Of a DNA stretch of 39,452 nucleotides, positions 4,498 to 38,603 are shown one piece after another. This DNA comes from Acetobacteraceae bacterium (lineage in GTDB: Bacteria > Bacillota > Sulfobacillia > JAIMBG01). Where the stretch lies: assembly GCA_023511555.1 (NCBI GenBank), contig JAIMBG010000003.1, positions 1-39,452 on the forward strand, given 5' to 3'. The notes under the pieces were generated by a model that had not been told where the DNA came from, ran no database searches, and saw nothing but the letters and a program-made list of their open reading frames with translations. The position numbers were made by a program, and so were the translations under genes. Positions within the stretch are counted from its first letter, which is position 1; every line of letters begins with the position of its first letter.

Positions 4498-7266
4498 ATG
4501 AACCAGGGAGGGCCCAGCACCAATCCGGAAAGTGGCGGTGGATGCCCAGGCCGGGGTGCGGTTTGGCACCGGGTTGACCTGCACCTCCACAGCCCTGGTG
4601 TGGAGAGTTTCGCCTGCCCCTCCGGAGCCAACCTCAGCAGCGAGGCGGGGCGTGCAGAGGTTGTCGAGAAGTATCTCGCGCAACTGGCGAGCCAGAACAT
4701 CGGCGTCGCAGCGATCACGGACTACAACGGCATACGGCTACACTGGTTCGAGCTTCTCGCCGCTGGGGCCGCAAACCGTGGCATGGTGCTACTTCCAGGG
4801 GTGGAACTGTCCTTCAGGTCGGCCGGGAAGCACGGGCTTCACGTGCTAGCCGTCTTTGACCGCGACGCAGATTGGGCTGGGATCAACCGGTTCCTGCAGG
4901 CCCTGGACAGAGACCCCGCTACCCCGCTGTTCACGGACAGGCTACATCGCGACATTGACCCCAGAGGCAGCATCGCGGATGTACTAAAACAGGTGAGAGA
5001 CCGCTTCAATTGCCTGCTCATTTTTCCCCATCCGGAAGGGGATAACGGTTGCTTCAAAACCTTCAAAGCCCAAGACGCAGCTCGACTTCTGAAGGAGGTA
5101 CGGCCAGACGCAATAGAACACTTTCCGACGGTCGAAACCAGAAAGAAGGCGGCCGTTGAGGTGCTCGGTCCCGACTTCTGGCGCTACCTGTCGCTGGTCG
5201 AGTTCTCGGACGCCAAGCGCATTGAAGAAGTCGGCACCAGGACGTTGGCCGACGGGAGCCCCCGTGCGACCTTCATAAAGCTCAGCGCCACGGACGTGAG
5301 CGCTCTTCGGCTGGCACTCCACGACCCAGCAACGCGCCTGAGCATCGGCGGAATCCCGCGAGCCCCCCATGCCAGGATTGTAAGCACCGCTGTCGAGGGC
5401 TCTGGGTTCCTCGGCAATATCAGCATTGAGTGGAACGATGACCTTAATGTGATCATTGGAGGCAGAGGGGCCGGGAAGTCGGCCATTCTCGAGACGTTGC
5501 GCTACGCTTTGGCACTGTCTCCCTATTCGGACGAATCGTCCCGGATCGACTTGGTCCGGCATGCTCTAGGCAGCGGGGGCAAGGTAACCGTGGTGTTAAA
5601 CCGGCCGCTGGGAGGCGTCAAGAGCCGCGAGTATGTGGTAACTCGAGTCCTGGGCGAAGAGCCCCGCGTAACTGAGGCTGACACAGGAAAGCTTGTGGCC
5701 ATACCCCCCCGTCAGCTGCTGGGCCCGGTCGGCGGCCCCACGATACTTGGGCAGCGAGAGATCCAAGCAGTCTCTCAGAGTACTGGCTACCGCCTGGCTC
5801 TCCTGGATGAACTCATTGGTGACGAGGCACGCGAGCGTGCTAACGCGGTTCGTGAGGCTATCGAGGAACTTCGAGCCAACGCGCGAGAGATCCTGGCCGC
5901 CCGCAAGGCCCTGGAGAAGCGAGAGGAACACCGCCAGCGCCTGTTGGCAATCCGGCATGAACTTGATGTCTATGAGAGACACGGCGTTGCAGACAAGCTT
6001 AAAGAGGTCGGCGATCTACGTAGTGACGACCAACTCTTACGGACCGCAGGGGATACCATCAGGACGGTCAAAAGCGACTGGTCAGCCATGTGTCAGGATC
6101 TTCTTGCCGCGCTGGACGCGGGACACCGCGGCTTGCTTCGCGGCCAGAGCAAGCAGAAGGCACTGCTGGAGGAAGCTGCCCGGACCCTCGCGGAACTGCG
6201 GGACCGGTTGGGGTCCCTCTCGAAACAGGGCCTGACCCTGCTCGACGAAGCCGACCGGGCCTTTGGGGCATTTAGAGACCGATGGAAGGAGCTTATCCTC
6301 CCTCTGGAGGAGGAGATCAACCGCATCAAAAGGGAGGTACGTACCGACGTCCTCGACCCGGACCGCCTCTTGAGATTGGTCGAGGAGCAAACCGCCTTGA
6401 TGCCTTTGCTCGAAGACCTGGACCGGATGGAACGGCGACTCGCGGACCTGCTCGAGAAACGCCGGGACCTGCTCGCCCGAGTTGCCGACCTCAGGTTAGA
6501 GGAACACAAGCTTCGCAGAGAACGGGCCGATGCCATCTCGAGACTGTTACAGGACCGTCTATTACTTAGGATAGAGTTCAAGGGGCACAGGGAAGAGTAT
6601 AAGAAGCGGCTCGCGGCTATGCTGAAGGGGGCGGGTTTGTACCCTGATGCAATTGACAACATTGCAATGGCAACTGACGGGATCCAGTTGGCGGACGCTG
6701 TCCAGGGGGGCCCAGAAGTGGTTCAAGAGCGCTTTGGGCTCACCCCCGCAATGGCTCAACGGTTGGTCAAGCAACTTACGGACGACGAGTCGAGACTCTT
6801 CGAGTTGCAGACCATTATACCCGCCGACGCTGTGGCGGTGTACCTAAGAGTGGACGACGAGTATCGGCCCCTGGAAAGGTTGTCCCTGGGTCAGCGCGCG
6901 ACCGCCATCTTGCTGCTGCTGTTTGCGTTCCAGGGCCGTACTCTGGTGCTGGACCAGCCCGAGGACGACCTCGACAACAGATTCGTGTATGACGACATAG
7001 TACAGATCCTGAGAGAGCAAAAGGGCCTAAGAGATCCTGGGCACCGACGCCAGATCATCGCCGCCACTCATAGCGCTAACATCCCGGTACTAGGCGACGC
7101 TGAACTCGTGCTTGCCCTGGAGGCGAGAGAGGGCCGGGCCCACATAATCGGCCGCGCGTCGATTGACGACGCGCGCATTCGAGAGCTGGTCAAGGCGGTC
7201 ATGGAGGGCGGCGAAGAGGCCTTCCGGCGTCGGGCGGAAAAGTACGGGGGGGTTCCACCCTCATGA
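4498..7266 (+). CDS. PHP-domain + coiled-coil ABC ATPase fusion (Ppl/TrlF-like, putative anti-phage protein)
   Basis: N-terminal PHP motifs DLHLHS, AITDYN, LPGVEL, HVLAVF and FSDAK. Walker A GGRGAGKS, long coiled coil, signature LSLGQR, Walker B/D-loop LVLDQPEDDLD, H-switch ATHSANI. Confidence 0.88.
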   Translation: MNQGGPSTNPESGGGCPGRGAVWHRVDLHLHSPGVESFACPSGANLSSEAGRAEVVEKYLAQLASQNIGVAAITDYNGIRLHWFELLAAGAANRGMVLLPGVELSFRSAGKHGLHVLAVFDRDADWAGINRFLQALDRDPATPLFTDRLHRDIDPRGSIADVLKQVRDRFNCLLIFPHPEGDNGCFKTFKAQDAARLLKEVRPDAIEHFPTVETRKKAAVEVLGPDFWRYLSLVEFSDAKRIEEVGTRTLADGSPRATFIKLSATDVSALRLALHDPATRLSIGGIPRAPHARIVSTAVEGSGFLGNISIEWNDDLNVIIGGRGAGKSAILETLRYALALSPYSDESSRIDLVRHALGSGGKVTVVLNRPLGGVKSREYVVTRVLGEEPRVTEADTGKLVAIPPRQLLGPVGGPTILGQREIQAVSQSTGYRLALLDELIGDEARERANAVREAIEELRANAREILAARKALEKREEHRQRLLAIRHELDVYERHGVADKLKEVGDLRSDDQLLRTAGDTIRTVKSDWSAMCQDLLAALDAGHRGLLRGQSKQKALLEEAARTLAELRDRLGSLSKQGLTLLDEADRAFGAFRDRWKELILPLEEEINRIKREVRTDVLDPDRLLRLVEEQTALMPLLEDLDRMERRLADLLEKRRDLLARVADLRLEEHKLRRERADAISRLLQDRLLLRIEFKGHREEYKKRLAAMLKGAGLYPDAIDNIAMATDGIQLADAVQGGPEVVQERFGLTPAMAQRLVKQLTDDESRLFELQTIIPADAVAVYLRVDDEYRPLERLSLGQRATAILLLLFAFQGRTLVLDQPEDDLDNRFVYDDIVQILREQKGLRDPGHRRQIIAATHSANIPVLGDAELVLALEAREGRAHIIGRASIDDARIRELVKAVMEGGEEAFRRRAEKYGGVPPS

Positions 7267-8450
7267 ACTGGGTGGAGCTTCGGGCCCGCATCGCCAAGTG
7301 GGAGGATCTCCATACGGAGTTCAAGGAGTGGCTACCGCATAAGGATGACGTAGCTGCGAGCCTGGTGGCGTTCGCAAACACGGACGGGGGGCAATTGGTA
7401 ATCGGAGTCACGAAGGAGCGTCTCATCAAGGGAGTCGACGACGCGGATGCTGTGGCTCGGCTGGTGGACGACGTTGCCACCAACAACTGCGAGCCGCCGA
7501 TCACGGTGATCCAGGAGGTCTTGTGGCCCGACAACCACGGACCGGGGGCCGAGACAACCCTCACGGCCAGACCAGTCCTGGTGGTGAACATCCCCAAAGG
7601 GGATCAGCGTCCGTACCGTACTAACCGGGGTGTATTCTACATCCGGACGACATCGGGGCGCCGCAGCGCGTCCCGCGAAGAACTGCTGCGCCTCTTCCAG
7701 GCCACGGAGAGCCTGTACTACGACGAAACACCGCTCCATCGCCTTTCCCTGTCTGACTTCGATTTTGACTCCCTCGACAGGTACCTTGAGGCCACGGGGC
7801 AGCGGCAGCTTCACGGCGACCCGGAACGCCTGCTGACAAACTGGGGCCTCTACCGCAACGGCCACCCCACAATCGCCGGCCTCGTCCTCTTTGGGCGCGA
7901 GCCCCAGCGGCACCTCCCCTTCGCTCAGATCAACGCGGCTCGCTTCCCCGGTAGGGACAGCTCCTTGGAACCGTCTGACCGGAAGGACCTGACAGGCAGG
8001 CTCCTGGACGTGATCGACCAGGCAGAGCGCTTCCTGGACCTCCACCTCAGGGTCCCCCACGAGATCCGCGGCTTCGAGCCCGAACCCAAGCCGGAGCTGC
8101 CCAAGGAGGCCCTCCGAGAGGCCATCGTCAACGCCGTGGCCCACCGTGACTACACGATCCACGGCCCCGTCCGGCTGTTCGTGTTCGACGACCGCGTGGA
8201 GGTCCACACCCCCGGCAAGCCCCCGAACACCGTCGACGAGGGTGCCATGCGCGCTGGAACCCACGTGGTCCGCAACCCGCGCATATACGCGCGGCTTTCC
8301 GACGCCGGCCTGGTCACGCGGGCCGGAACCGGAATCCCCCGCATCATCCGACTGGTAAAGCAGGCCACAGGCCGCGACATCGAGATAAACGTACGGGAGT
8401 TCGAGGTCCTGTTGACCATCCCCAGAACCCGCGCCGACTCCGCGCCGTAA
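7263..8450 (+). CDS. Schlafen/AlbA_2 domain + HATPase_c_4 (RecG_C-like) protein
   Basis: WEDLHTEFKE and VAFANTDGGQLVIGV (AlbA_2). ALREAIVNAVAHRDY, FDDRVEVHTPG and RNPRI..GTGIPRI (HATPase_c_4). ATGA overlap with the upstream stop. Confidence 0.88.
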   Translation: MNWVELRARIAKWEDLHTEFKEWLPHKDDVAASLVAFANTDGGQLVIGVTKERLIKGVDDADAVARLVDDVATNNCEPPITVIQEVLWPDNHGPGAETTLTARPVLVVNIPKGDQRPYRTNRGVFYIRTTSGRRSASREELLRLFQATESLYYDETPLHRLSLSDFDFDSLDRYLEATGQRQLHGDPERLLTNWGLYRNGHPTIAGLVLFGREPQRHLPFAQINAARFPGRDSSLEPSDRKDLTGRLLDVIDQAERFLDLHLRVPHEIRGFEPEPKPELPKEALREAIVNAVAHRDYTIHGPVRLFVFDDRVEVHTPGKPPNTVDEGAMRAGTHVVRNPRIYARLSDAGLVTRAGTGIPRIIRLVKQATGRDIEINVREFEVLLTIPRTRADSAP

Positions 8451-8473
8451 AAAAAGGCCGCCTCTCGGCGGCC
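8449..8473 (-). terminator. Intrinsic terminator of groESL
   Basis: On the minus strand: GGCCGCC-GAGA-GGCGGCC followed by TTTTTTT. Confidence 0.8.
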
Positions 8474-8602
8474 GTAAACAGACAGTCCTCAGCCCTAACA
8501 CAGCACGGCAAACCCAGGCCGGAGCCGCGGCCCGGCCCCGCGGGTGCAGCCCCCGGGCAGCCCTGCGGGGCCGGCGCCGGCGCGCACTTCCGCCCTCCCC
8601 GT

Positions 8603-10219
<1,617 letters not shown>

Positions 10220-27970: not shown

Positions 27971-28040
27971 GTGCTCAAGTCCTGCGGCAGCAGCCTGCCG
28001 TACGGCGTGCTCAGGGCCTGCGGCAGCAGGCTGCCCTACG
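27971..28040. repeat. Two-copy 36-bp-period tandem repeat
   Basis: GTGCTCAAGTCCTGCGGCAGCAGCCTGCCGTACG vs GTGCTCAGGGCCTGCGGCAGCAGGCTGCCCTACG (30/34 identical). Confidence 0.85.
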
Positions 28041-28090
28041 ACGACGAACAAGGCGGTGGATAGTTGCTCCAGAACCGTACGCCGATGAGG

Positions 28091-29314
28091 TTAGGGCACA
28101 ACGAAGGTCACAATGCTCTCCCGCGAAGGTCTCCGCCCATACTTACCCATCTGCTGCGCGCTGTTGCCCCTGTACCTGACAGCGAGAATGCGGCGGCACG
28201 CGAGGCCAGCTTGTTCGCCCACCTCGGCGCACAACTCATCTACCGGGACCAGGACACCACAGTACTGAGCGTTTCCAACGACGACAGCCACCCTGGCTCC
28301 CGGAAGGCACACGCGACGGATCTCGCTCAACGCAAGATACATGTCGATGAAGTAGCCTTCCACCATAGCGGGAACCCGTCGATCTGTACTGGCGGCCTGA
28401 ATCAGGGACACAATCTCCCTTAGCGTCGAAGGTCGCTGGTACCCTCGAGGCACGGGGCGTTGCGGCCGGGCCTCGGGATGAGAGTGAAAGCTCTGGTATC
28501 GGAGCGCCCGAGTCTGCTCCCAGTTCAAGAACGCTAGCATGAGTTCAACGCCGAACACCCTGGTATAATCATGTCGGTTGGGATAAGGCGGAGAAGTGAT
28601 GACTGCTGTAAACACGCGTCCCGTGACAGGCAGTCGCCGCGCGTCGGCCTGTTCCACCGCCCATTGAGACCCGGAAGGACGATGAACGCGGTTGAGGTCG
28701 GAGAGCATCATGCCTAGGCGCTCAGCAAGGGCGTGGGGGAAGGTGTGTGCTGGCGCTCTCGTCTTCACCCATTTAAGCCAGCCGCCCGCGGGTATGGCTC
28801 GGCTGTACCGGGGTATCACGCCCAGCACGCCGAGTCTAAAAAAGTCCCTCTCGGGTTCAGATAAGGGCAGCTCAGCTATGGTAGCAAGGGCGGAGGCGAA
28901 GGTACCTAGCAAACGGCCGGGCAGCGCCCTTCTTACCAGTTGGGAGTAGCGTCCATGAGCACGACCGGGCTTACCAAGGGAGTCAAGCAGTCGGGAAGAG
29001 AGCGCGGAAAGCCGCTTGACGTCCAAGTCGCTGACCTTTGTTCTCGCTGCGAGGACGGCCAGGGGCGAAAGGTCAAACCCGGTCGCGGGTACACCCTGTT
29101 CACGCGCGGCAAGTACCGTCGTCCCGGCCCCGACGAACGGATCCAGCACGCGATCCTTGGCACCCAAGTTCCACTCCTCAAATAACGCGTGTACTAGGTC
29201 GCTGGAGAAGCTGTGGGGAAACACGTACCAGCGGTGAATGGGCTTGGAGTGAAGACCGTGGGGGGTCACCCAAGGTCCCCAGGCTGGGCGTTCCTCTACC
29301 GCATAAGTGGGCAC
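28091..29314 (-). CDS. Amino-DNA methyltransferase, SPPY type (probable m4C, alpha motif order)
   Basis: WYVFPHSFS, VLDPFVGAGTT (motif I) and GFDLSPLA, then ADARRLP..VITSPPY (motif IV). Confidence 0.9.
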   Translation of the reverse strand: MPTYAVEERPAWGPWVTPHGLHSKPIHRWYVFPHSFSSDLVHALFEEWNLGAKDRVLDPFVGAGTTVLAAREQGVPATGFDLSPLAVLAARTKVSDLDVKRLSALSSRLLDSLGKPGRAHGRYSQLVRRALPGRLLGTFASALATIAELPLSEPERDFFRLGVLGVIPRYSRAIPAGGWLKWVKTRAPAHTFPHALAERLGMMLSDLNRVHRPSGSQWAVEQADARRLPVTGRVFTAVITSPPYPNRHDYTRVFGVELMLAFLNWEQTRALRYQSFHSHPEARPQRPVPRGYQRPSTLREIVSLIQAASTDRRVPAMVEGYFIDMYLALSEIRRVCLPGARVAVVVGNAQYCGVLVPVDELCAEVGEQAGLACRRILAVRYRGNSAQQMGKYGRRPSRESIVTFVVP

Positions 29315-29320
29315 TAGCGT

Positions 29321-31105
29321 TCACCCCGCGCGCTCATGGCCGATCCCCCGATATGCCGGCTGCGGGAACTCTATCTTGATCGGCTGTCGGTATATGGGGT
29401 GCGATAGCAGCAACTCCCCTTTGTTCAAACGAGTGAGGTGCGCCTTTAGAGCCTGAGCAATATGCCGGTACGCGGGTTCGGAGAGCTCCGAGGAGTCGCT
29501 GCGACCAATGACCTTGGTTGCACAGTTCCCAACGACTTGGGGATGGACTTCGCTCATGAATTGCTCCGCCGAGATGAGAACCACCCCCAGCGACCGGCCC
29601 CGGGCGGCGATGTCCAGAACGTACTCGAGTATCGAGGATTCTCCCTCCGTCCGCCGTGAAGGAGCATATTTGTTGAGCTCGTCGACGAACAGTATGACTT
29701 TCTTCGGTAGGTCACCCAGTTCGTCGACTGTAGCCTCAGCATACATGTTGTATACTTCCTGCACAATGTGGCCCAAAGCCAGGGCTCGCTCTTCCTCCGT
29801 CAGTCTCGCCACGTCCACCACGGTGACCTGGCCCCCGCGAATCTGCCGGATCTCCTCACCCAGATTGACGGCACGCCGGGTGGCGCGCTGCTCCACAAAC
29901 ACCCCCGACTGGCGATTCTTGACCACCCGCCTGAGGATTCGCACGAAGCGTCCGACGGACGCAGGTTTCACCCCGCTGACCTCCTGGGGCACCCCCTTAT
30001 CCATGAGCGGCGGTCCGCTCAGTAGATCGCTCCACGTGCTGACTTTGCTCCATTTCGGCTCCTGATTCATGATTCCCTGATGGATTTCGCCGATTAGCGC
30101 TCCCAGGGTGTCCCACGGGTCCGGCACCCGAATGAGCAGCCCCAGCCCCGGTCCGGGGGAAGTCCGCGTCCCTATAACGTCTTCCAGCGAGTATGCATAC
30201 ACCTGGAACTGGTCCGGTGGCTCCCCGAAACAATTGGGAAGGCCGGTGGTTTGAGTTTCCTTCCCCCAAGGCAGCAGATAGCGAACGTTGTCGAAGGGCT
30301 GGGGCCGAAGTCCAAGGAGCTCCCACAGCTCATACTCCTCAGCCTTCATATCGTGCCTGGGCTTATCAATGACCAGGAGATCATTCTGCTTCACGTTCAG
30401 AATCACCACTGCGATGTCCTTGGAGCCAACCGTCTGCAGTATCGACTGTATAAGAAACATGGCGTATGAGGTTTTCGTGGCGAGGCCGGAGATGCCAGCT
30501 ATGTTCACATGCGCCCCCTCAGGCCCCAGCACGTAGCGCTTGTCAAGGTACACGCGCACCCTGCTGCCATTGGAGATGCGCACGACCCCAGCGGGAATCG
30601 CGACTCGGTCCCTATGCTGGCGCTCGTACTCCATCATCTTATCGATGCCTAGGGCGACGTGGACCCCACCTTCGTCGGCGAAGCGCACCGGTGAGTCGCT
30701 CTGTACTGGCATGTAAATGCCCATCGGATAACGCTTGGGGTCGGAAGGGTCATAGTTGGCTAGGACACTTACTTCTGCCACGTTTGCCCCCTGCCTCGGC
30801 GTCTGGGGCAATACCCGGGTGCTCCCAAAATCGCTAGAAATATAGTTCGAAAGATGCGACGGAGCGTCCGTGACCTGCTCTATATTGGTCACTAGCCCAA
30901 ACGTTCGTGTCCCTCCGATATGGTCGGCCTCCACTATGTCAAAGGGATTGACGATTTCCTCAGGCGCCAACCAGAAGAAGAACTTCTCCGCAGAGTTGGG
31001 CTCGCGGTCGGTGGCAGAGGCTTTTCCTATGATTCGGCGGCTCCCGTCCACCGCTTCTTGCTCCGCTGATTCTTTCTCACTGCGAGGCACGACTCGAACT
31101 GCCAC
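29321..31105 (-). CDS. HerA-like ATPase/translocase with an atypical Walker A
   Basis: N-terminal HAS-barrel-like region, HVNIAGISGLATKTSY, VILNVKQNDL, Walker B LFVDELNKYAP and arginine-finger region IAARGRSLGVVLISAEQ. Start placed at GTG 31105. Confidence 0.85.
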   Translation of the reverse strand: MAVRVVPRSEKESAEQEAVDGSRRIIGKASATDREPNSAEKFFFWLAPEEIVNPFDIVEADHIGGTRTFGLVTNIEQVTDAPSHLSNYISSDFGSTRVLPQTPRQGANVAEVSVLANYDPSDPKRYPMGIYMPVQSDSPVRFADEGGVHVALGIDKMMEYERQHRDRVAIPAGVVRISNGSRVRVYLDKRYVLGPEGAHVNIAGISGLATKTSYAMFLIQSILQTVGSKDIAVVILNVKQNDLLVIDKPRHDMKAEEYELWELLGLRPQPFDNVRYLLPWGKETQTTGLPNCFGEPPDQFQVYAYSLEDVIGTRTSPGPGLGLLIRVPDPWDTLGALIGEIHQGIMNQEPKWSKVSTWSDLLSGPPLMDKGVPQEVSGVKPASVGRFVRILRRVVKNRQSGVFVEQRATRRAVNLGEEIRQIRGGQVTVVDVARLTEEERALALGHIVQEVYNMYAEATVDELGDLPKKVILFVDELNKYAPSRRTEGESSILEYVLDIAARGRSLGVVLISAEQFMSEVHPQVVGNCATKVIGRSDSSELSEPAYRHIAQALKAHLTRLNKGELLLSHPIYRQPIKIEFPQPAYRGIGHERAG

Positions 31106-31124
31106 TGCCTGATCCCCCCGACTC

Positions 31125-32258
31125 TCATTGTTGGGCACGTGCAGGGAAGGCTGGCCACCTAAGCCCTGCGCGCAAAGCCTCACTGGAAATGAACGCATTC
31201 TTGACCGCCTGCTCGGCTAAGTGGATCGCATAGAGGTGCGCGTGCCAGCGCGGGTCCTTACCGTGCGGTGTTACATGTCGCTCAGCAACCAGTACCGCGG
31301 ATATCTCATCGATCAGCTCTGAAGGCACTGCTTCGCGGGTTGGGTTGGGAAACTCGACCTTGACCACCCCCATGAGGGGATAATCCAGGTGGCGTTGCTC
31401 CCGAAGACGAACGTACCACACAGCCATCTGGCCCGAGCGGACGGAGAAAGCACACGTCCGCGCTGAATGGGGTAGGCCGGCGAGCAATTCATACAAGTTC
31501 ACTACCTGCCTTGCGCCACCCCCAGGCAGCGTAAAGGTCGGCTCACGGCTGAATGACTTGGTCACGCCGAAGAAGTGCGGAACGTTGCGCCATGCGTGCA
31601 GGTCCTTGCCCAGGCTCCCATCTAGAACCAGCCAGTGGCCGGGTTCCCGCGCGAGGTTGCGTCCCAAGGCGTCCTCCAGCTTTGCCATCATGTGGTGGGC
31701 CTTGTGTGCAGCACGTGAACGGGGCTCCTTGCCAGGGGACGTCATCTCGCTTTCGCCGTCTTCCTCCATGATGTCGCAGAATCTGTATGGACCGCCAGCC
31801 TCCTGTACCAGCTGGGCGACGCGTTCTCCAAAGGACACAGCCTTCTTATCCATCATCAACACGATCTGCCTTTCGAATCCAGCCACCTTTACTCGCCCGT
31901 CGTCCAGCCGGAACACCACGGCGGCTCCGATCTGGGCCACATGGACAGATGTGCGCCGCCTGCCTTCAACCACGTCTCCCAGGAAATACGTTCGGGCGGA
32001 GCCGTCCAGGAAGTACCTCAACATGTGATGCTCGTTCCGATGTAGCGGGCGTAATGTCACATACGGCCTCCGGTTGGGGGCCTCCAAGACGACGTCCAGC
32101 AGCCGGTCTTCGCCCATTCGAAGCGTATCGATGACCTCTTGATGATCCGGCCGCACCAGATCCTCCATGGCCTGGCCGGTAGCGGGCAAGACCTTGCCTT
32201 CCCGGTTTATCAACTCCAACGCGGGATGAAGGCCTGCGAAAGGATTGCGCATCGTCAC
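31125..32258 (-). CDS. NurA-like (RNase H fold) nuclease
   Basis: YFLDGS (motif I), LVLDGSL (motif II), FGVTKS and C-terminal HLYAIHLAEQ. Directly upstream of the HerA-like gene; GTGA overlap with the IIG stop. Confidence 0.75.
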   Translation of the reverse strand: MTMRNPFAGLHPALELINREGKVLPATGQAMEDLVRPDHQEVIDTLRMGEDRLLDVVLEAPNRRPYVTLRPLHRNEHHMLRYFLDGSARTYFLGDVVEGRRRTSVHVAQIGAAVVFRLDDGRVKVAGFERQIVLMMDKKAVSFGERVAQLVQEAGGPYRFCDIMEEDGESEMTSPGKEPRSRAAHKAHHMMAKLEDALGRNLAREPGHWLVLDGSLGKDLHAWRNVPHFFGVTKSFSREPTFTLPGGGARQVVNLYELLAGLPHSARTCAFSVRSGQMAVWYVRLREQRHLDYPLMGVVKVEFPNPTREAVPSELIDEISAVLVAERHVTPHGKDPRWHAHLYAIHLAEQAVKNAFISSEALRAGLRWPAFPARAQQ

Positions 32259-35200
32259 GAATCCTCCAGGGACCGCCTGATCTCGGCCGACTCCTCGTCA
32301 GTCAGCCCCCACAAAGCGGCGGCCCATCGATCTACCTGGCCCTGAATCCGGGCGACGCGCTGCCACTCGGTCTGCTTGGCTGCTTCGTGAGCCTGCTGAG
32401 AGAGTTCAGCCAGCCGGACATGGGCTGTATTCTTGGGGGAAAACCGCGGTATGCTTACATGTTTCAGGACATGAGGGTCAGGATGCAAGACTATGTAATT
32501 CTTGATGGCGAGGCGGGATGGCGCCGAGTTGAGCACAGCACAGAGGTAGTGCGCCTCCTCCTCGCTTGCGCAGTCAACAAGAATACACGTGTGATCGGGA
32601 ATCACAGGCTTTGCGACGCCCAGGACGTCCGCGCGTCCCACGACGGCAGCCTCTACCTCGTTAGCTACCTCCCGCCATACGACCTTCCACGGAGCAAAGG
32701 TGAAGAGGCTGACGTTAAACATCGACCAATAGGGATCTGCATCTTTGAAGTATCGTCGGAACGCCGCCCGCCGCCGCAGAAGCACCTCGAATCTGGAAAG
32801 ATACGAGTGGGCTTTCGGATACCGTGCCTCCATGACCTCACGGCTTATGCCTCTACGGGTCGACGGATCCTGGGTCATCAAGATGTGGCCAGAAGGGACG
32901 GCGGACCAGCGCCTCACGTCTCGCCCCCGCAACAAGGGATAGAGCAGCTCCGGTTCCACCGACGCCTGAGTCCGCGGCACCTCGCGACGCGCACCCTCAG
33001 TAATGTTTGCCACGATGGCGAAGCCGCCGGGCCGGGGACTCACGATGTCAACCCAAAACACGGCATTCGCCCCGCCTGTGTTGCATCCCTCGTGAGCGGT
33101 GTAATGAGATGAACCCAGCACTTTACGCAGGGCACGGATCGACCAGCGCCTCCCGGTCAGCCACGCTGAGGTAGGGTCTCCGGCGTCAACCGGCTCAGCA
33201 AACCACTCACGGTAGGTTACCTTCTCGCTGCTGACCGCTGCATAGGGAGTGTCAAAACCGATCGCGCTCCCCCGCCCCGTCTGCCGCTTCTTCCAGTACT
33301 GGTAGGACACGGGATAACGCACCGCGTGCCCTTTAGCAAACACAGCCACCGTGGGCCTGTTCGTCGCACGCTCAAAGGGGTCCAACTCTGTCATGTCTTC
33401 CACCACCAGGGGACCGAAAGGCGTTCCATCAGGGAGGCAAAAGCGGCGGAACCCCTGGCTGGCAGCCGAGGCCTTGAACAGGCTCTGCGAAAGCAGGAAA
33501 CCCAGCTTGCCACCTTGCCGCAGGTATCGGTGAGCGGCAACGTAGGTCATGAGCATGGAAATGTCTTTCTTGCCTTTCCCTAGGATGGTATCCATGCCCT
33601 CGTGGGGAAACAACTTATAGTACTCCCATAGGGGCTTCGTCCGCGAGCGGTAGTCGTCCGGCAGGTTCTCCCAGTTCACCCATGGGGGGTTGCCAACCAC
33701 ATAGTGGCAAGGCTCCAGAAAGAGCGGGGCGAAGGTGTTCTTCACGATTCGGGCCCAGACCCCGTCGAGGCCCTCATCGTGCAACTCTCGGAGCTGACGG
33801 TAAAGCAGCCTGATGTCTCCCTCCGCAACCGCCATCTCCTCCGGCTCGACGATACCCGCCGAGGACACCCGTGCCAGAAAGGCGTCCTCGGCGACACCCG
33901 CCTCCGTTGCCTCATCCAGGAGATTCGCCAGGGCGTCCAGCCGCTGGCGGTCTGCGAAGCAGGCTGGAATGCGGAACACCCCTACCGAGGTCGTGAGAGG
34001 GTACACGTTGTCCTCGAAGATCCCCGTCCCCGGTTGCGGCGTGAGCACCGAGTCAGCCTGATACACTGGAATATCTATGGGGCGATCAGCTAGCCGCGCC
34101 TTCAGCAGGTCGCCGAGGGCAAGCAGGTAGTTGGTCCGCGCGGCAATGACTGCCAGTGGGTTGAGGTCGATCCCCACGACATTCTGAAGGATCAGCATCA
34201 GCGTCTCGCGCGCATCGGACTTCTTCCTGCCTGCCCGATCTCTGATATGCCGTATAAGCGCTACAAGGAACGTACCGGAGCCGCAGGCGGGATCCAGAAC
34301 TCTCTTGCGAGGGTTGCCGAGGTCAGCCTCCCCGAGTGTTTGCCGGATCAGCCTCTCCGCAAGCCAGTCAGGGGTGTAGTACTCGCCCAGGTCATGGCGA
34401 ATGTCGCGCGGGAGGAGGTAGTGGTACAACTTCTTCAACAGGTCGCGGGCATTCTCCGGCGCAAGCTCCAGAGTACCGGGATCATACTTCGCCAGTTGCC
34501 TTGCCAGGCGTGCCGCCGCCCACTCCACCTCCTCGTCCCAGGCTGGCAGGTACCACCCGAAAAAGTCACCTTCTAGAAAGTTCCGGATGCCGTAATCCCT
34601 GAACGGGTCTCCCCGCTCAAGCGCAGCGAAGGCCCAGCGCAGGTCTGCTCCCTCTGTGCACCCCAGCTTCTGCAGGGAAAGGTGCGAGCCTCCGGCAAAA
34701 TGCTCCGCCGCCAGAAAGGCTATGAGCTTGATGAGCAGCGCGTAGTACGTGTGGAGTGCGAAGAATACCCGCGGGGCCTCCACATACCTCGGCTCCAGCC
34801 CCATGCCCCGCACAAAGCTCTGGAATTCCTCCTTGCCTTCGATACGGGAGGCCCACTCACGGTAGTCGGTCGCCTCCCCGAAGAAGGTCGCCCACTGCTC
34901 GAAAAGCTTGATCACCAGAGGGTGCTTGCTCCGGTGAAGTGCTCGGTACAACGCCCTCACCGACCGCTTCGCGTTGTCGGTACGAGGTCCAAAGTCGGCC
35001 AGCAGATTCTCAGGGACCAGGGCAGCACCTGTGGCAAGCGAAAACAGCAGGCGCAGGAACAACTCTGCGGAACCCTCGTTGACAGCTACCGGCTCATCAA
35101 TTGACCAGCCGTCGCCGACCCGTCTGACGAAGATAAAGTAAAACCCGTCTGTTACCACACCGGCCAAGCGGCTTGCCTCGCGCCGTTCCCGCCTAGCTAC

Positions 35201-35515
35201 ATCCAAAATATAACCCTCAACCTGCTCTATGACGCTCTTGTTGGCATGCCCAGCATTGCTTGGCCTCAGAGTACCAGGGCGTTTGTACTCCAGGACGAGG
35301 CGGTTGTACAGGGAATCGACCCTACCACGGGCAACGGAATACTCGTCTCTAGGCTTGAGAACGAGCCCGGCCTCCAGGGCCGTCTCCTCGAGAACGCGGG
35401 CTGCCTCCCGCCGGAAGTCGGCCTCGGTTCCCCCCCGCCCCGCACTTTCTTGGAGGGCCTGGGCGACCCGGGAGGCAGAACGGGAGACCAGTTCTTCAAC
35501 AGTCGCGCTCCCCAT
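32255..35515 (-). CDS. Type IIG restriction endonuclease-m6A methyltransferase-TRD fusion
   Basis: PD-(D/E)xK nuclease motifs EADFR, GRVD..LVLEYKRP, EQVEGY and VVTDG. Gamma MTase motifs GEYYTP, LDPACGSGTFL, GIDLNP and VGNPPW. TaqI_C-like TRD motifs PLLRGRDVRRW, KVVWRE and YLCAVLNS. Confidence 0.92.
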   Translation of the reverse strand: MGSATVEELVSRSASRVAQALQESAGRGGTEADFRREAARVLEETALEAGLVLKPRDEYSVARGRVDSLYNRLVLEYKRPGTLRPSNAGHANKSVIEQVEGYILDVARRERREASRLAGVVTDGFYFIFVRRVGDGWSIDEPVAVNEGSAELFLRLLFSLATGAALVPENLLADFGPRTDNAKRSVRALYRALHRSKHPLVIKLFEQWATFFGEATDYREWASRIEGKEEFQSFVRGMGLEPRYVEAPRVFFALHTYYALLIKLIAFLAAEHFAGGSHLSLQKLGCTEGADLRWAFAALERGDPFRDYGIRNFLEGDFFGWYLPAWDEEVEWAAARLARQLAKYDPGTLELAPENARDLLKKLYHYLLPRDIRHDLGEYYTPDWLAERLIRQTLGEADLGNPRKRVLDPACGSGTFLVALIRHIRDRAGRKKSDARETLMLILQNVVGIDLNPLAVIAARTNYLLALGDLLKARLADRPIDIPVYQADSVLTPQPGTGIFEDNVYPLTTSVGVFRIPACFADRQRLDALANLLDEATEAGVAEDAFLARVSSAGIVEPEEMAVAEGDIRLLYRQLRELHDEGLDGVWARIVKNTFAPLFLEPCHYVVGNPPWVNWENLPDDYRSRTKPLWEYYKLFPHEGMDTILGKGKKDISMLMTYVAAHRYLRQGGKLGFLLSQSLFKASAASQGFRRFCLPDGTPFGPLVVEDMTELDPFERATNRPTVAVFAKGHAVRYPVSYQYWKKRQTGRGSAIGFDTPYAAVSSEKVTYREWFAEPVDAGDPTSAWLTGRRWSIRALRKVLGSSHYTAHEGCNTGGANAVFWVDIVSPRPGGFAIVANITEGARREVPRTQASVEPELLYPLLRGRDVRRWSAVPSGHILMTQDPSTRRGISREVMEARYPKAHSYLSRFEVLLRRRAAFRRYFKDADPYWSMFNVSLFTFAPWKVVWREVANEVEAAVVGRADVLGVAKPVIPDHTCILVDCASEEEAHYLCAVLNSAPSRLAIKNYIVLHPDPHVLKHVSIPRFSPKNTAHVRLAELSQQAHEAAKQTEWQRVARIQGQVDRWAAALWGLTDEESAEIRRSLEDS

Positions 35516-35589
35516 CGGCCCCCACCCTTCTCAAAGCCCGGGAATGCAGACCAGGCTTGGGCGAGCAAACGCTTCGTCCAGAGAGGACT

Positions 35590-35617
35590 ATTCGACGACT
35601 GCGACGAGCTCCCCTGC
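35590..35617 (-). promoter_or_regulatory. SigH-like promoter candidate for the IIG operon
   Basis: GCAGGG-N18-GAAT (GTCGAAT), the same form as upstream of tdk. Confidence 0.45.
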
Positions 35618-35667
35618 GGTCGGCGAGTAAGCAGTCCAATCGAAGAAACTGCTCCCGCCTTACCAAG

Positions 35668-35697
35668 ATACTACCACCCCGGTCTTCTAAGAGTCAA
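35668..35697 (-). promoter_or_regulatory. SigA-type promoter candidate for the IIG operon
   Basis: TTGACT-N18-TAGTAT with an extended TGn. Same -35 hexamer and spacing as the groES promoter. Confidence 0.6.
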
Positions 35698-36228
35698 GGC
35701 GTAGCCCTGGCACTTAGAGGTGACAGCAGATTCCTTGGCCCTGGGCAACACGTTCCTTCCCGGTTGCGCTAGTCCACACCCGCCGAGCCCCGAGCCAGCC
35801 CCGCTCCTGGGGGCCGGTTTGCGACCGCCGGACGGGCCGGGCGGGAGGAAACCGTACATGAGCGCAGGAGCGGTCGCCTACGCCGTCGGCTTGAGGACTT
35901 CAAGCGCCTCCTTCGCCACAGGTCGGCTCGTAGACTCCCTGAGGGCTCATGATCCTGAAGCGCCTCTGCCTCGTCCGGCGCCGGGCCACGAGTTCACCCC
36001 AGAATCACGGCATCAAAGGCTCTGAAGTTAGGCAAGAGACTGCCGGGTCGGCCCCGACTCCACCATTCCGCCTCCGCATCCCAGCCCGCCATACCCGGCC
36101 TCCACTCCTCGTTCCACCGCGGCCATGCCCCTACCGCCCGGGATGGTGCCGCGGCGCCGGCAAAAAAGAAGGGAGCCCGGCCCCCCATCCGCTGTGCCCA
36201 CCCAAATCCGCCCCCCGCCGAGGCGCCG

Positions 36229-37641
36229 CTACAGCCCCATCAGCCTCTCCAGGGCCGCGCCCCCCGGCCCGCGGGGGACGGCGAAGATGACACCCTGGGC
36301 GCCTTCCCCGCCACCCAGGCAGGCGAAGTGCAGCCACTCGTCCGCCGGCAGCACCACCAGGCGGCGCAGCCTGATGATGGCGCGGCCTGCGGCGTCTCGC
36401 TCCAGCCCCTGCGGGACCCGGTCCAGCGCCGGGGCAAGGCTGGCCGCCGACGAGTAGGCCAGGTCCAGCGCTTTGCCCGCCCGGCCGAGCTCGGCGCCCA
36501 CCTTGGCCTCCACTGCCGCGACCGGCCCGGAGGCCGTCACCCGGCCCCTGAAGCCGCCCAGCGCCGACTCAAGCGCTGCCGCCACCCCAGCCAGGGCGGC
36601 GGGATCAAGGCCGCTGGGCTGGCCGCCGCGCACCACCGCCCCGGAAGACGGGGCGCCGGCCACCACGGCGACCGGCGCAGCCTGCGGGGCTTCGGCGTGC
36701 TCCTGCGTCACCTCGGGGTCCAGGGCCGCCACGTTTGCCACAAAGGGCCGCGGCTCGCCCTCGACCCAGGCCGTGCCCTCGAAGTGGTAGACGGGGTGGA
36801 GGTAGGGCTGCCTTTCGGGGTTGGGCGACTCCCAGTAGGCCAGGGTCACCCTCTCCACCCGGGCCCGGTCGGCCCCCTCGGGCAGGTCGATGGCCCCCCG
36901 CCCCGCCACCAGCTCCGACAGCGCCGACGCGACGCCCCGGAGGGGCATTGTCCGGTAGGGCTCCAGCCTACGCCAGTAGCTCGACACGCCGACCACTTCA
37001 AGCCCCCCGTTACAGCGCGCCACATCCACGTCGATGCGTGACACGCCCAGCACCGGCAGGCCGCCGATGGCGCGGCGGTAGAGCACCGTCTTGCCTACCA
37101 CCCGCTCCGCCAGGTCATCGCCCCTTGCAGCCACCGCCGGCTCTACCCGGGAGGGCTGGAACTCAGCAGGGAGAAGGCCCCGCTCCCTCAGGAACGAGCC
37201 GGCGAGGGCTACCGCCTCGGCATCGGAACAGGGGTCGGCTGCGCTGGGAAGGGGCTCCGGCCACCGTCCCGGCGTCACGTAGGAGAAGGTGCCGTCCCGG
37301 TTGACCACCAACTGTCGCGCGCCGTCGCTCACCACATAAATGGGGCCCTTGGACTCCACGGGGCCCTCGAGCCCCAACAACGCCGCCAGCCTGCGGGCCT
37401 CTTCCGGCCCCGCCCTCTGCGGCGCCACCCGATACACGGGGCACCGGTCCGGGAGGCCCTCGCCCAGCGTGTCAGCGTGCTCCCAGGTCACCGGCGGCAG
37501 GCTGCGGCCCACCGGAGGGAGCTGGAGGGCAGGGACGGCACGGCCCGCCCCCGGTCCCAGAGCCATGACCGCCACGGCCGCGATCAAGGCGAGCCCGGCG
37601 GCGCACGAAACTGTCGCCCACAGGGTCTTCCTGCCTCTCAT
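36229..37641 (-). CDS. Hypothetical membrane-anchored/exported protein (possibly YycI/YycH-like fold)
   Basis: N-terminal MRGRKTLW + hydrophobic helix. EAVALAGSFLRERGLLP, YRRAIGGLPV, VTLAYW and YLHPVYHFEG. ATG at 37641. The fold assignment is only an impression. Confidence 0.7.
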   Translation of the reverse strand: MRGRKTLWATVSCAAGLALIAAVAVMALGPGAGRAVPALQLPPVGRSLPPVTWEHADTLGEGLPDRCPVYRVAPQRAGPEEARRLAALLGLEGPVESKGPIYVVSDGARQLVVNRDGTFSYVTPGRWPEPLPSAADPCSDAEAVALAGSFLRERGLLPAEFQPSRVEPAVAARGDDLAERVVGKTVLYRRAIGGLPVLGVSRIDVDVARCNGGLEVVGVSSYWRRLEPYRTMPLRGVASALSELVAGRGAIDLPEGADRARVERVTLAYWESPNPERQPYLHPVYHFEGTAWVEGEPRPFVANVAALDPEVTQEHAEAPQAAPVAVVAGAPSSGAVVRGGQPSGLDPAALAGVAAALESALGGFRGRVTASGPVAAVEAKVGAELGRAGKALDLAYSSAASLAPALDRVPQGLERDAAGRAIIRLRRLVVLPADEWLHFACLGGGEGAQGVIFAVPRGPGGAALERLMGL

Positions 37642-37769
37642 ATGCCCACTTGCCCGCCAAGAATCGAGGTCTCCCCCCCGGACGGGCCGGCCGCTTTGTA
37701 GACCAACCGGATTCAAAGCTGGGAGGGGCCGAGCAACGTAGGAGGGCGTCAACCGGGGTCGACGCACCG

Positions 37770-38603
37770 CTACCCCAAATCCCCCGCCGAGGCCAGGGCC
37801 CACACCAGGCTGAGGTCCTCGCCCGCACCGGGGCCTCGGCGCATAATGATGTTTTCCCTCACCGGGCGGAGCCCCACCGCCCGCAACGCCTTGAGCGCCG
37901 GGCCGTTCAGGCCGGGCGCCTCGGCCACCACCTCGGCGCCGGGGGCCAGCGCCCCCAGGCATCTCTCCAGAACGCTCACGGCGGCAGCCTCCCCCGGCTG
38001 GGCCGAGCCCCAGGGGCCCAGCCGCCAGCGGTCGGCGCCCACGCGCGACGCCATCAAGAACGCCCCCGGCTCGAAGAACAGCGATGCGGCGCGGAGCATC
38101 AGGGCGAGCACCCGGCCCCGGTCCACCTTCCATCCCGCCCGGTCCATCTCCAACACCCGCTCCTGCTCGGCGGGCCCGACCTGGCCGGGCGAGGGGAGGG
38201 GCTCACCGCCGCCCGGGGCTTTCCCCTCAAACTTCACCACCCGGTGGTAGGGCGAAAACCCGGCCCGGAGGTAGAGCCCCTGCGCCTCGGGCACGCTCTC
38301 CAGGTAGACGGACCTTATGCCCTGGGCCTCAAGCCACTCCAGGGCATGGGTCAAGAGGCGGTGGCCCAGCCCCCGGCCCCGGAGAGGGGGTTCGAGGATG
38401 AGGTTGCCCAGCCAGGCGACCTCGCCGTAGCTCACCGTGGTTATGAGCCCCACCGGCCCGCCCTCCCCCTCGAGCACGAAGCAGCCCTCCGGGCTCAGGT
38501 CCAGGTACCGCCCCAGGTCCAGGGCGGTGGTGGCCCAGCCCTCGGACTGCATCAGTGCCGCCAGCCGCGCAATGTCCCGGGCCTCCAGCAGCCTCACCCG
38601 CAC
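37770..38603 (-). CDS. GNAT-family N-acetyltransferase (tandem GNAT-like domains)
   Basis: AWLGNLILEPPLRGRGLGHRLL (acetyl-CoA motif A) and AQGLYLRAGF. Start uncertain (38603, 38612 or 38654); the ATG at 38654 lies inside a hairpin. Confidence 0.88.
   Translation of the reverse strand: MRVRLLEARDIARLAALMQSEGWATTALDLGRYLDLSPEGCFVLEGEGGPVGLITTVSYGEVAWLGNLILEPPLRGRGLGHRLLTHALEWLEAQGIRSVYLESVPEAQGLYLRAGFSPYHRVVKFEGKAPGGGEPLPSPGQVGPAEQERVLEMDRAGWKVDRGRVLALMLRAASLFFEPGAFLMASRVGADRWRLGPWGSAQPGEAAAVSVLERCLGALAPGAEVVAEAPGLNGPALKALRAVGLRPVRENIIMRRGPGAGEDLSLVWALASAGDLG

Follow-up and report, generated by a model that had tools for sequence, protein, structure and literature searches.

Four genes of unusual composition, packed into one low-GC stretch of a bacterial contig, raise the question of whether they form a single system and, if they do, what that system is for. 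The window analysed here is the whole 39,452-base contig JAIMBG010000003.1, part of a metagenome-assembled genome (MAG; assembly GCA_023511555.1) that is 88.6% complete and 2.49 Mb in size; GC denotes guanine-plus-cytosine content. A preliminary description of this DNA had read four co-directional genes in it, in the order restriction endonuclease-methyltransferase fusion, NurA-like nuclease, HerA-like ATPase and SPPY-type methyltransferase, and had proposed that they make up one cut-and-resect defence system for which no name was known. The open reading frame (ORF) map bears out the genes, their order and their coordinates (lengths in amino acids, aa):

32255 to 35515, minus strand: Type IIG restriction endonuclease-methyltransferase with a built-in target-recognition domain (1086 aa, TspDTI/Tth111II type)
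31125 to 32258, minus strand: NurA-fold (RNase H-like) nuclease (377 aa from GTG, 375 aa from ATG at 32252)
29321 to 31105, minus strand: HerA/FtsK-type ATPase, a TdtA-like bacterial HerA (start at 31105 or 31090; the longest ORF, from 31198, has 625 aa)
28091 to 29314, minus strand: predicted second, stand-alone amino-methyltransferase (407 aa)
28000 to 35900, no strand: low-GC island holding the four genes and their leader only (from GC profile and tRNA, repeat and neighbour scans)

All four ORFs are intact and tightly spaced on the minus strand, and they are the sole ORFs of the low-GC stretch at about 28.0 to 35.9 kb. GC content is 0.58 to 0.63 over 28 to 36 kb versus 0.71 to 0.74 in both flanks (about 0.60 versus 0.72 overall, in agreement with the lower-GC DNA described earlier), with a step at each end, near 28.0 kb and at 35.8 to 36.1 kb. 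The minimal spacing can likewise be read directly from the sequence. The stop codon TGA of the Type IIG gene overlaps a GTG of nurA (GTGA), and an ATG at 32252, two bases past that stop, matches the N termini of homologues (MRNPF...) better than the GTG does; the database version of the protein has 375 aa. The nurA stop lies at 31125 and the likely herA start, a GTG at 31105, stands 19 nt beyond it and 7 nt behind a GGGGGGA run. The database places the herA start at a GTG at 31090, giving 589 aa, and a start at the ATG at 31198 would create a 74-nt overlap with nurA, through an extension to which homologues do not align. From the herA stop to the GTG start of the second methylase there are 6 nt.

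The Type IIG protein is matched over its full length by the PADLOC model REase_MTase_IIG (PDLC03630, 1157 bits, residues 18-1084) and also by the Pfam families N6_Mtase, MmeI_Mtase and Eco57I. It carries a predicted nuclease motif of the PD-(D/E)XK type (D67...E76-Y-K78), FVRGMG at 234-239, the S-adenosylmethionine (SAM) motif DPACGSG at 408-414 and VVGNPPW at 606-612 with the catalytic NPPW at 609-612; residues D408, D450, D488, N609-W612 and F714 are invariant in the family. Read from these motifs, the protein is a predicted nuclease, gamma-class N6-methyladenine (m6A) methylase and target-recognition domain in one chain. A hypervariable target-recognition domain was not found among its homologues, in which conservation is fairly even along the protein.

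The TspDTI/Tth111II/TsoI subfamily is defined by DPACGSG and NPPW (Zylicz-Stachula et al. 2012, PMC3384240), and Tth111II has FARGMG at 234-239 and VVGNPPW at 614-620 (Zhu et al. 2014, PMC3899748). The window enzyme has the DPACGSG and NPPW of this subfamily as well as FxRGMG at 234-239, and the key TspDTI residues D422, D464, D500, NPPW626 and F732 (PMC3384240) find their counterparts in it at offsets of 12-18. Thermus enzymes carry an atypical D-EXE nuclease motif and other homologues D-EXK (PMC3384240); the window enzyme has D-EXK, as published for the non-Thermus homologues. Tth111II recognises CAARCA, methylates one adenine and is stimulated by SAM; on single-site DNA it mainly nicks the top strand, double-strand cleavage needs several sites, and it cleaves incompletely (PMC3899748).

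The HerA-like protein aligns with Deinococcus radiodurans HerA (7f6d_B) at E 1.3e-41. Its Walker A segment, GISGLATKTS (K242 in the numbering of the 625-aa ORF), matches GISGVATKTS of the Deinococcus protein, the same unusual P-loop, and its Walker B segment, FVDELNKYAP (D506 and E507, same numbering), matches VLDELNKYAP. PADLOC models mad8 (3.8e-12, 44 bits) and HerA (1.3e-10) also match; with 14.7 bits, the protein stays far below the cut-off of 970 for the archaeal HerA equivalog NF040819. Its hydrophobicity maximum (KD19) is 1.41, and no stretch in any of the four proteins is hydrophobic enough for a transmembrane segment.

The nuclease is the most diverged member of the set. No Pfam, PADLOC or NCBIfam model matches it (Pfam and NCBIfam at E<=0.01), and against D. 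radiodurans NurA (7f6d_H) it scores E 0.26 as a single sequence and 0.0093 with a 22-sequence profile, in its C-terminal part only. An AlphaFold model built on the 22-sequence alignment, of medium confidence (pLDDT, predicted local distance difference test, 68; pTM, predicted template modelling score, 0.72), finds D. radiodurans NurA (7f6d_G, E 1.4e-8) as its best PDB match in Foldseek. Ranks 2 and 3 fall to TM1739 (1zup, 1.2e-6), a Thermotoga "putative nuclease with RNase H-like fold", followed by Sulfolobus solfataricus NurA (2ygk_A, 1.5e-5), the Thermococcus kodakarensis HerA-NurA complex (9x1l_G, 4.4e-4) and TdpAB (8wfd_G, 1e-3); the entries titled NurA or HerA-NurA complex, together with 1zup, make up four of the five top matches. 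Six residues, D85 (in FLDGS), E98, D137, D213 (in LDGS), H339 and H341, are invariant in the 22 homologues. The model thus supports calling the protein a NurA-fold nuclease, not a member of the Pfam family. Fused forms of it (661-2000 aa) were searched for and none was found, which is weak evidence.

The second methylase matches the PADLOC model MTase_II (PDLC03224, 3.9e-54) and, at 29.1 bits, stands just over the cut-off of 26.7 for Pfam PF01555. Its motif I (DPFVGAG, 58-64) and motif IV (SPPY, 241-244) lie about 175 residues apart, and N4-methylcytosine as the product of this SPPY enzyme is a guess. Of the family calls in the preliminary description, those of the Type IIG enzyme, the HerA-like ATPase and the SPPY methylase hold by sequence, whereas that of NurA holds by fold model and finds no family-profile match.

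Whether the four genes belong together was judged from related loci. A pattern scan with the 22-sequence NurA-like alignment, over one genome per species, gave 40 loci (identified below by numbers with the prefix L), in which gene order was read by tblastn with the four window proteins; a scan of the same type using the single NurA-like sequence found no relative. Record titles of the 40 loci name at least a dozen phyla. Wherever a locus continues beyond NurA (34 loci), HerA comes next, and in 33 of these 34 it is followed in turn by the second methylase (the exception is L039). Of the 37 loci whose upstream DNA is long enough, 33 carry the Type IIG gene upstream in the same orientation. Within 10 kb upstream it was not found in L021, L028, L031 and L039, and its presence was not judged for L018, L019 and L036. 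Pairwise identities of the four proteins over 24 complete cassettes are correlated with one another (Spearman 0.86-0.90, a descriptive figure, the pairs being non-independent), and mean identity is highest for HerA (0.69) and lowest for the second methylase (0.48). Scoring of 8000 candidates gave 900 NurA-like homologues at E<=0.001, of which the best 120 share 68-80% identity, come from many phyla where labelled and include no Thermus entry. There are hundreds of strong homologues for each protein, and the best 120 matches of the HerA-like ATPase also lack Thermus, as do the ESM Atlas clusters listed.

With strong homologues in the hundreds for every protein and a conserved gene order, the gene set is, by sequence comparison, far beyond chance. 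Synteny across phyla, co-divergence and tight junctions strongly support the view that the four genes are one conserved unit. The single system proposed at the outset therefore stands, and the conservation of the four-gene order that was to be checked is there; the idea that nurA-herA pairs are rarely found near Type IIG or methylase genes is contradicted. A Type IIG restriction-modification (R-M) pair could in principle lie by chance beside an unrelated housekeeping NurA-HerA repair pair, and PDB titles do describe HerA-NurA as a repair complex in archaea and Deinococcus. The order (kept in 33 of 37 loci for the Type IIG gene and in 34 of 34 for HerA), the co-divergence, the tight junctions and the common low-GC island all argue against this. 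A search of 40 genomes of the class failed to find a NurA-like protein in 39, so the gene is not housekeeping. Synteny contradicts chance adjacency, which we regard as effectively excluded and to which we leave almost no probability.

The cassette is also an acquired one. Of 40 further genomes in the class, a single one carries a relative (44% identity, with Type IIG, NurA and HerA in order), and GC content steps at both island edges, from which we conclude that the cassette was horizontally acquired as a bare 8-kb unit. The window contains no tRNA gene, no integrase was found among the cassette neighbours in it, and no convincing flanking direct-repeat pair was found around the island. Among 72,556 plasmids there is no close relative (tblastn matches reach only 24-30% identity), and viral contigs (IMG/VR) yielded one relative only, L043, with a full cassette; relatives are rare there under the search patterns used.

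Several of the collected loci depart from the standard layout. L021, L028 and L031 keep NurA, HerA and the methylase with no Type IIG gene within 10 kb upstream, and in L028 an AAA_21 ATPase and an HU-like DNA-binding protein occupy its place. At L039 (10001-15593), a Geobacter MAG carries a NurA-HerA pair of 30-33% identity that lacks both the Type IIG enzyme and the second methylase; a HATPase_c_3 and a radical-SAM protein come after the pair instead. Cassettes L002, L014 and L022 are decayed: the Type IIG gene is split or internally deleted in all three, HerA likewise in L002 and L022, and the Type IIG gene of L022 is broken by an insertion carrying an opposite-strand 291-aa ORF. Two relatives carry archaeal MAG labels, a Methanomethylicaceae HerA-like protein of 79% identity (P0163) and a Heimdallarchaeota NurA fragment of 48% (L036); these labels could reflect cross-domain transfer or binning error.

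The claim that no named system has this composition does not survive comparison with the literature, for a published operon matches it. Blesa et al. 2017 (PMC5365140) describe, in the integrative and conjugative element (ICE) ICEth1 of Thermus thermophilus HB27, a co-transcribed four-gene operon known as the tdtA or "DNA secretion system" operon. It comprises TTC1877 (1106 aa; the same protein as Tth111II, a Type IIG enzyme also named TthHB27I), TTC1878 (NurA-like, 377 aa), TdtA (TTC1879, AAS82221, 568 aa, a hexameric ATPase of the HerA/FtsK family whose pore can accommodate duplex DNA) and TTC1880 (N4/N6 methylase, pfam01555, 410 aa). ICEth1 measures 14.9 kb with 58% GC (PMC5365140). According to the same source, tdtA-like clusters with related restriction enzymes occur in T. 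scotoductus and Chloracidobacterium thermophilum.

The window operon shares with the tdtA operon the same four gene types in identical order, protein sizes (1106, 377, 568 and 410 aa there; 1086, 377, 589-594 and 407 aa here), Type IIG motifs at matching positions and a GC content below that of the host (58% in Thermus; about 60% here in a host of about 72%). It differs in that the ICEth1 integrase, tRNA attachment site, 47-bp repeats and transposase are absent around the window cassette, in its D-EXK nuclease motif in place of the D-EXE of the Thermus enzymes, and in its host, a high-GC MAG of another lineage. Because Type IIG motifs, gene order, gene sizes and low GC agree, the two operons very probably belong to one family. 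The window locus is another intact copy of the published operon, not an undescribed system.

What the operon was selected for is a separate matter, and the only role with experimental support is DNA donation. In Thermus, deletion of tdtA abolished donation ("transjugation"), deletion of nurA lowered transfer by 4-5 logs and deletion of the restriction enzyme by about 3 logs, and TdtA was found in the membrane fraction (PMC5365140). In the model of a later paper (PMC7767461), the restriction-methylase TthHB27I cleaves the genome in several places, and TdtA, with help from NurA, takes these cuts as transfer origins. On this explanation, export of host or element DNA is what selection maintains, with the Type IIG enzyme making multiple transfer origins and NurA-TdtA trimming the DNA and pumping it to a competent recipient. 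The knock-outs, the membrane-associated hexameric ATPase and the position of the operon inside an active ICE all speak for it. The locus examined here, by contrast, has no ICE context (integrase, tRNA gene or repeats), its four proteins hold no transmembrane-like segment, and the family occurs in more than 12 phyla, two archaeal MAG records among them, with very different cell envelopes.

A survey of the surroundings of the related cassettes weighs on the same question. On either side of a cassette it considered the closest two ORFs that reach 120 aa, as called by a crude greedy picker; 38 loci contributed 104 ORFs in all. Among these 104, Phage_integrase matched one, a Mutator transposase one and AAA_21 three, no recurrent family was seen, and no conserved envelope-spanning partner adjoins the cassette. 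The defence-type cargo embedded in variant cassettes also tells against DNA export, and the Thermus phenotype could, we infer, arise secondarily from breakage of the chromosome in a species that is polyploid and highly competent. We therefore consider export an unlikely purpose in this genome, while allowing it a real share of the probability.

The cargo sits mostly at one place. The junction between the Type IIG gene and nurA carries an insert of 0.8-3.5 kb in 10 of the 33 loci having both genes, and such inserts are present in all cassettes of the 45-50%-identity clade except L033. An insert before NurA is listed for L023-L030, L037, L038 and L040. L020 has a similar insert between HerA and the methylase (6834-9846). 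An AAA_21 ATPase with a DUF4276 partner is found in L026, L037 and L038, and in L028 the partner ORF has no family match; the two AAA_21 cargo ATPases scanned matched PADLOC HEC-01A at about 1e-41. L023 holds a nucleotidyltransferase (MNT) and HEPN pair, L025 a Fic protein and L024 an IS200 transposase. In L027 and L020 the insert is a trio of an unknown-family protein, a STAND/NACHT-like ATPase and a PIN-like protein, which no PADLOC model matched, and L030 has three ORFs sized like this trio. Variable defence-type genes at one operon junction recall Type I R-M and similar loci. The embedded cargo lends indirect support to a defence context.

We favour, on balance, the reading that the window holds a horizontally acquired copy of the tdtA-type operon working by cutting and then processing DNA, with restriction of incoming DNA, as defence or as a selfish R-M module, as its selected role. 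Restriction is preferred to secretion because ICE functions are missing here and the family spans very different cell envelopes, and also because integrases are rare among flanking ORFs, close plasmid relatives and transmembrane-like segments were not found, and the cargo is of defence type. Taken alone, the view that the cassette serves to restrict incoming DNA in this genome stands about evenly balanced.

The cut-and-resect mechanism of the preliminary description is plausible and, in the present analysis, the favoured one. By analogy with characterised relatives, the Type IIG enzyme would methylate its own asymmetric site (m6A) on host DNA and nick or cut unmethylated sites a few bases downstream. 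As the solved HerA-NurA complexes suggest, a NurA dimer on a HerA hexamer would then load at the nick or break, and ATP-driven unwinding would lead to degradation or threading of the DNA. NurA-HerA would in this way turn weak, mostly nicking Type IIG cleavage into irreversible processing, and the second methylase may add a further self mark. That Tth111II mostly nicks and cleaves incompletely provides a rationale for a coupled resection machine.

Extended to the whole family, this becomes the tentative proposal that the operon is foremost a widespread restriction system, in which a nicking Type IIG enzyme marks non-self, HerA-NurA destroys it, the junction docks defence cargo and Thermus "transjugation" is a side effect on a polyploid chromosome; we hold it a little short of an even prospect. 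A related explanation drops the benefit to the host. A selfish addiction or mobility module would persist by post-segregational killing and self-spread, with NurA-HerA making loss of methylation lethal. The patchy distribution, with one of 40 class relatives carrying the cassette and identities of 70-80% across phyla that resemble horizontal transfer, would suit such a module, as would the three decayed copies and ICEth1 itself, which is lost at up to 8% during growth, a behaviour from which the authors suggested continuous re-invasion (PMC5365140). Conserved proteins with intact catalytic motifs fit selfishness and defence alike, and sequence cannot tell the two apart; as a separate explanation, a purely selfish module seems to us improbable.

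Several observations weigh against restriction as the role of a cut-then-process operon. The sole experiments on a tdtA-type operon show DNA donation, not defence, and no published test of the operon for phage or plasmid restriction was found in a literature search that left subscription-only papers outside its scope. The defence-type cargo sits in the distant clade of 45-50% identity and not in the window cassette, and PADLOC matches among the flanking ORFs are dispersed, no model matching more than two of them. NurA membership depends on the medium-confidence fold model (pLDDT 68) and on marginal sequence scores, and orthology to TTC1877-1880 is drawn from motifs, sizes and architecture. The second methylase is left without an explained role, and its loss in Thermus reportedly matters little, the effect on transfer being minor according to PMC7767461, which cites a thesis.

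Two further features bear on the expression of the cassette:

35668 to 35697, minus strand: promoter-like site, TTGACT-18 nt-TAGTAT with TG (single consensus match, weak; 1 found versus 2.0 expected)
36167 to 36186, minus strand: terminator-like GC hairpin and T-run (pattern match only; 8 found versus 5.6 expected)

The promoter-like site lies about 150 nt upstream of the Type IIG start. The hairpin is situated just 3' of the upstream neighbour gene (36229-38133), and a terminator-like structure after the preceding gene suggests that the cassette is its own transcription unit. Outside the island, the neighbours are NuoF-like and formate-dehydrogenase-like genes, together with ORFs without a family. 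At the other edge, a 36-nt tandem duplication (27971-28042, two copies 86% identical) lies about 50 nt past the second-methylase stop, at the GC step that ends the island, and might be an insertion scar. Elsewhere in the window, positions 4498-8450 on the plus strand form a second lower-GC stretch (0.60-0.63) that encodes a 922-aa SMC/AAA_21-like ATPase and then, across a stop/start overlap, a 395-aa protein with Schlafen AlbA_2 and HATPase_c_4 domains. These two genes could be a further defence-type or mobile pair.

The operon has so far been studied in one species and for DNA donation alone. The present analysis shows that its four genes are strictly conserved as a unit across many phyla, mostly outside any conjugative-element context, and that one clade embeds defence-type genes; the window by itself adds one more intact copy only. 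If restriction does hand its cuts to HerA-NurA, this would explain the poor in vitro cleavage by Type IIG enzymes of the Thermus family. If DNA export is instead general, minimal DNA pumps capable of secretion would have a much wider distribution than is currently assumed.

Comparison with known systems places the operon among several that share its parts. With the HerA-NurA end-resection complexes of D. radiodurans (7f6d), Sulfolobus and Thermococcus it shares the P-loop and Walker B of the ATPase and the fold of the nuclease model; its nuclease, however, is too diverged for the Pfam NurA model, and its pair belongs to an accessory set flanked by R-M genes, not to an mre11/rad50 or housekeeping context. 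Eco57I-type Type IIG enzymes with a companion methyltransferase have the same bifunctional nuclease, gamma m6A methylase and target-recognition domain and a separate second methylase, whereas the window operon places NurA and HerA in between and has a companion of the SPPY type. Sir2-HerA and DUF4297-HerA also join a HerA-family ATPase and an effector in a mobile module. Their HerA is only weakly matched by the window protein (8xau_A, E 0.024; PADLOC HerA, 1e-10 to 2e-3), and they differ further in that the window effector is a NurA-fold nuclease and the module includes R-M genes. "HerA/FtsK capture" by defence systems is described as a general theme by Krishnan et al. 2024 (PMC10853773).

MADS of Pseudomonas aeruginosa (mad1-mad8) combines a methylation self mark with two ATPase-nuclease modules (PMC13662399), and its mad8 model is matched by the window HerA-like protein and mad2, weakly, by the Type IIG enzyme (47 and 26 bits). 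It differs in having eight genes, including a kinase and an OLD-like MAD3-MAD4 pair (PMC13662399). Membership in MADS was considered and rejected: the mad8 and mad2 matches are weak and the only ones, the NurA-like protein matches no MADS model, and there are four genes, not eight. TdpABC is likewise linked to DNA modification and is listed among the phosphorothioate-based R-M defences, and TdpAB (8wfd/8wet) supplies, with its chain G, one of the structural matches of the NurA-like model. TdpAB is built like HerA-NurA. TdpABC differs from the window operon in that its mark is a phosphorothioate made by TdpC rather than a methyl group and in that it has no Type IIG enzyme. If the operon does restrict DNA with the help of HerA-NurA, it would be a methylation-based counterpart to TdpABC and MADS.

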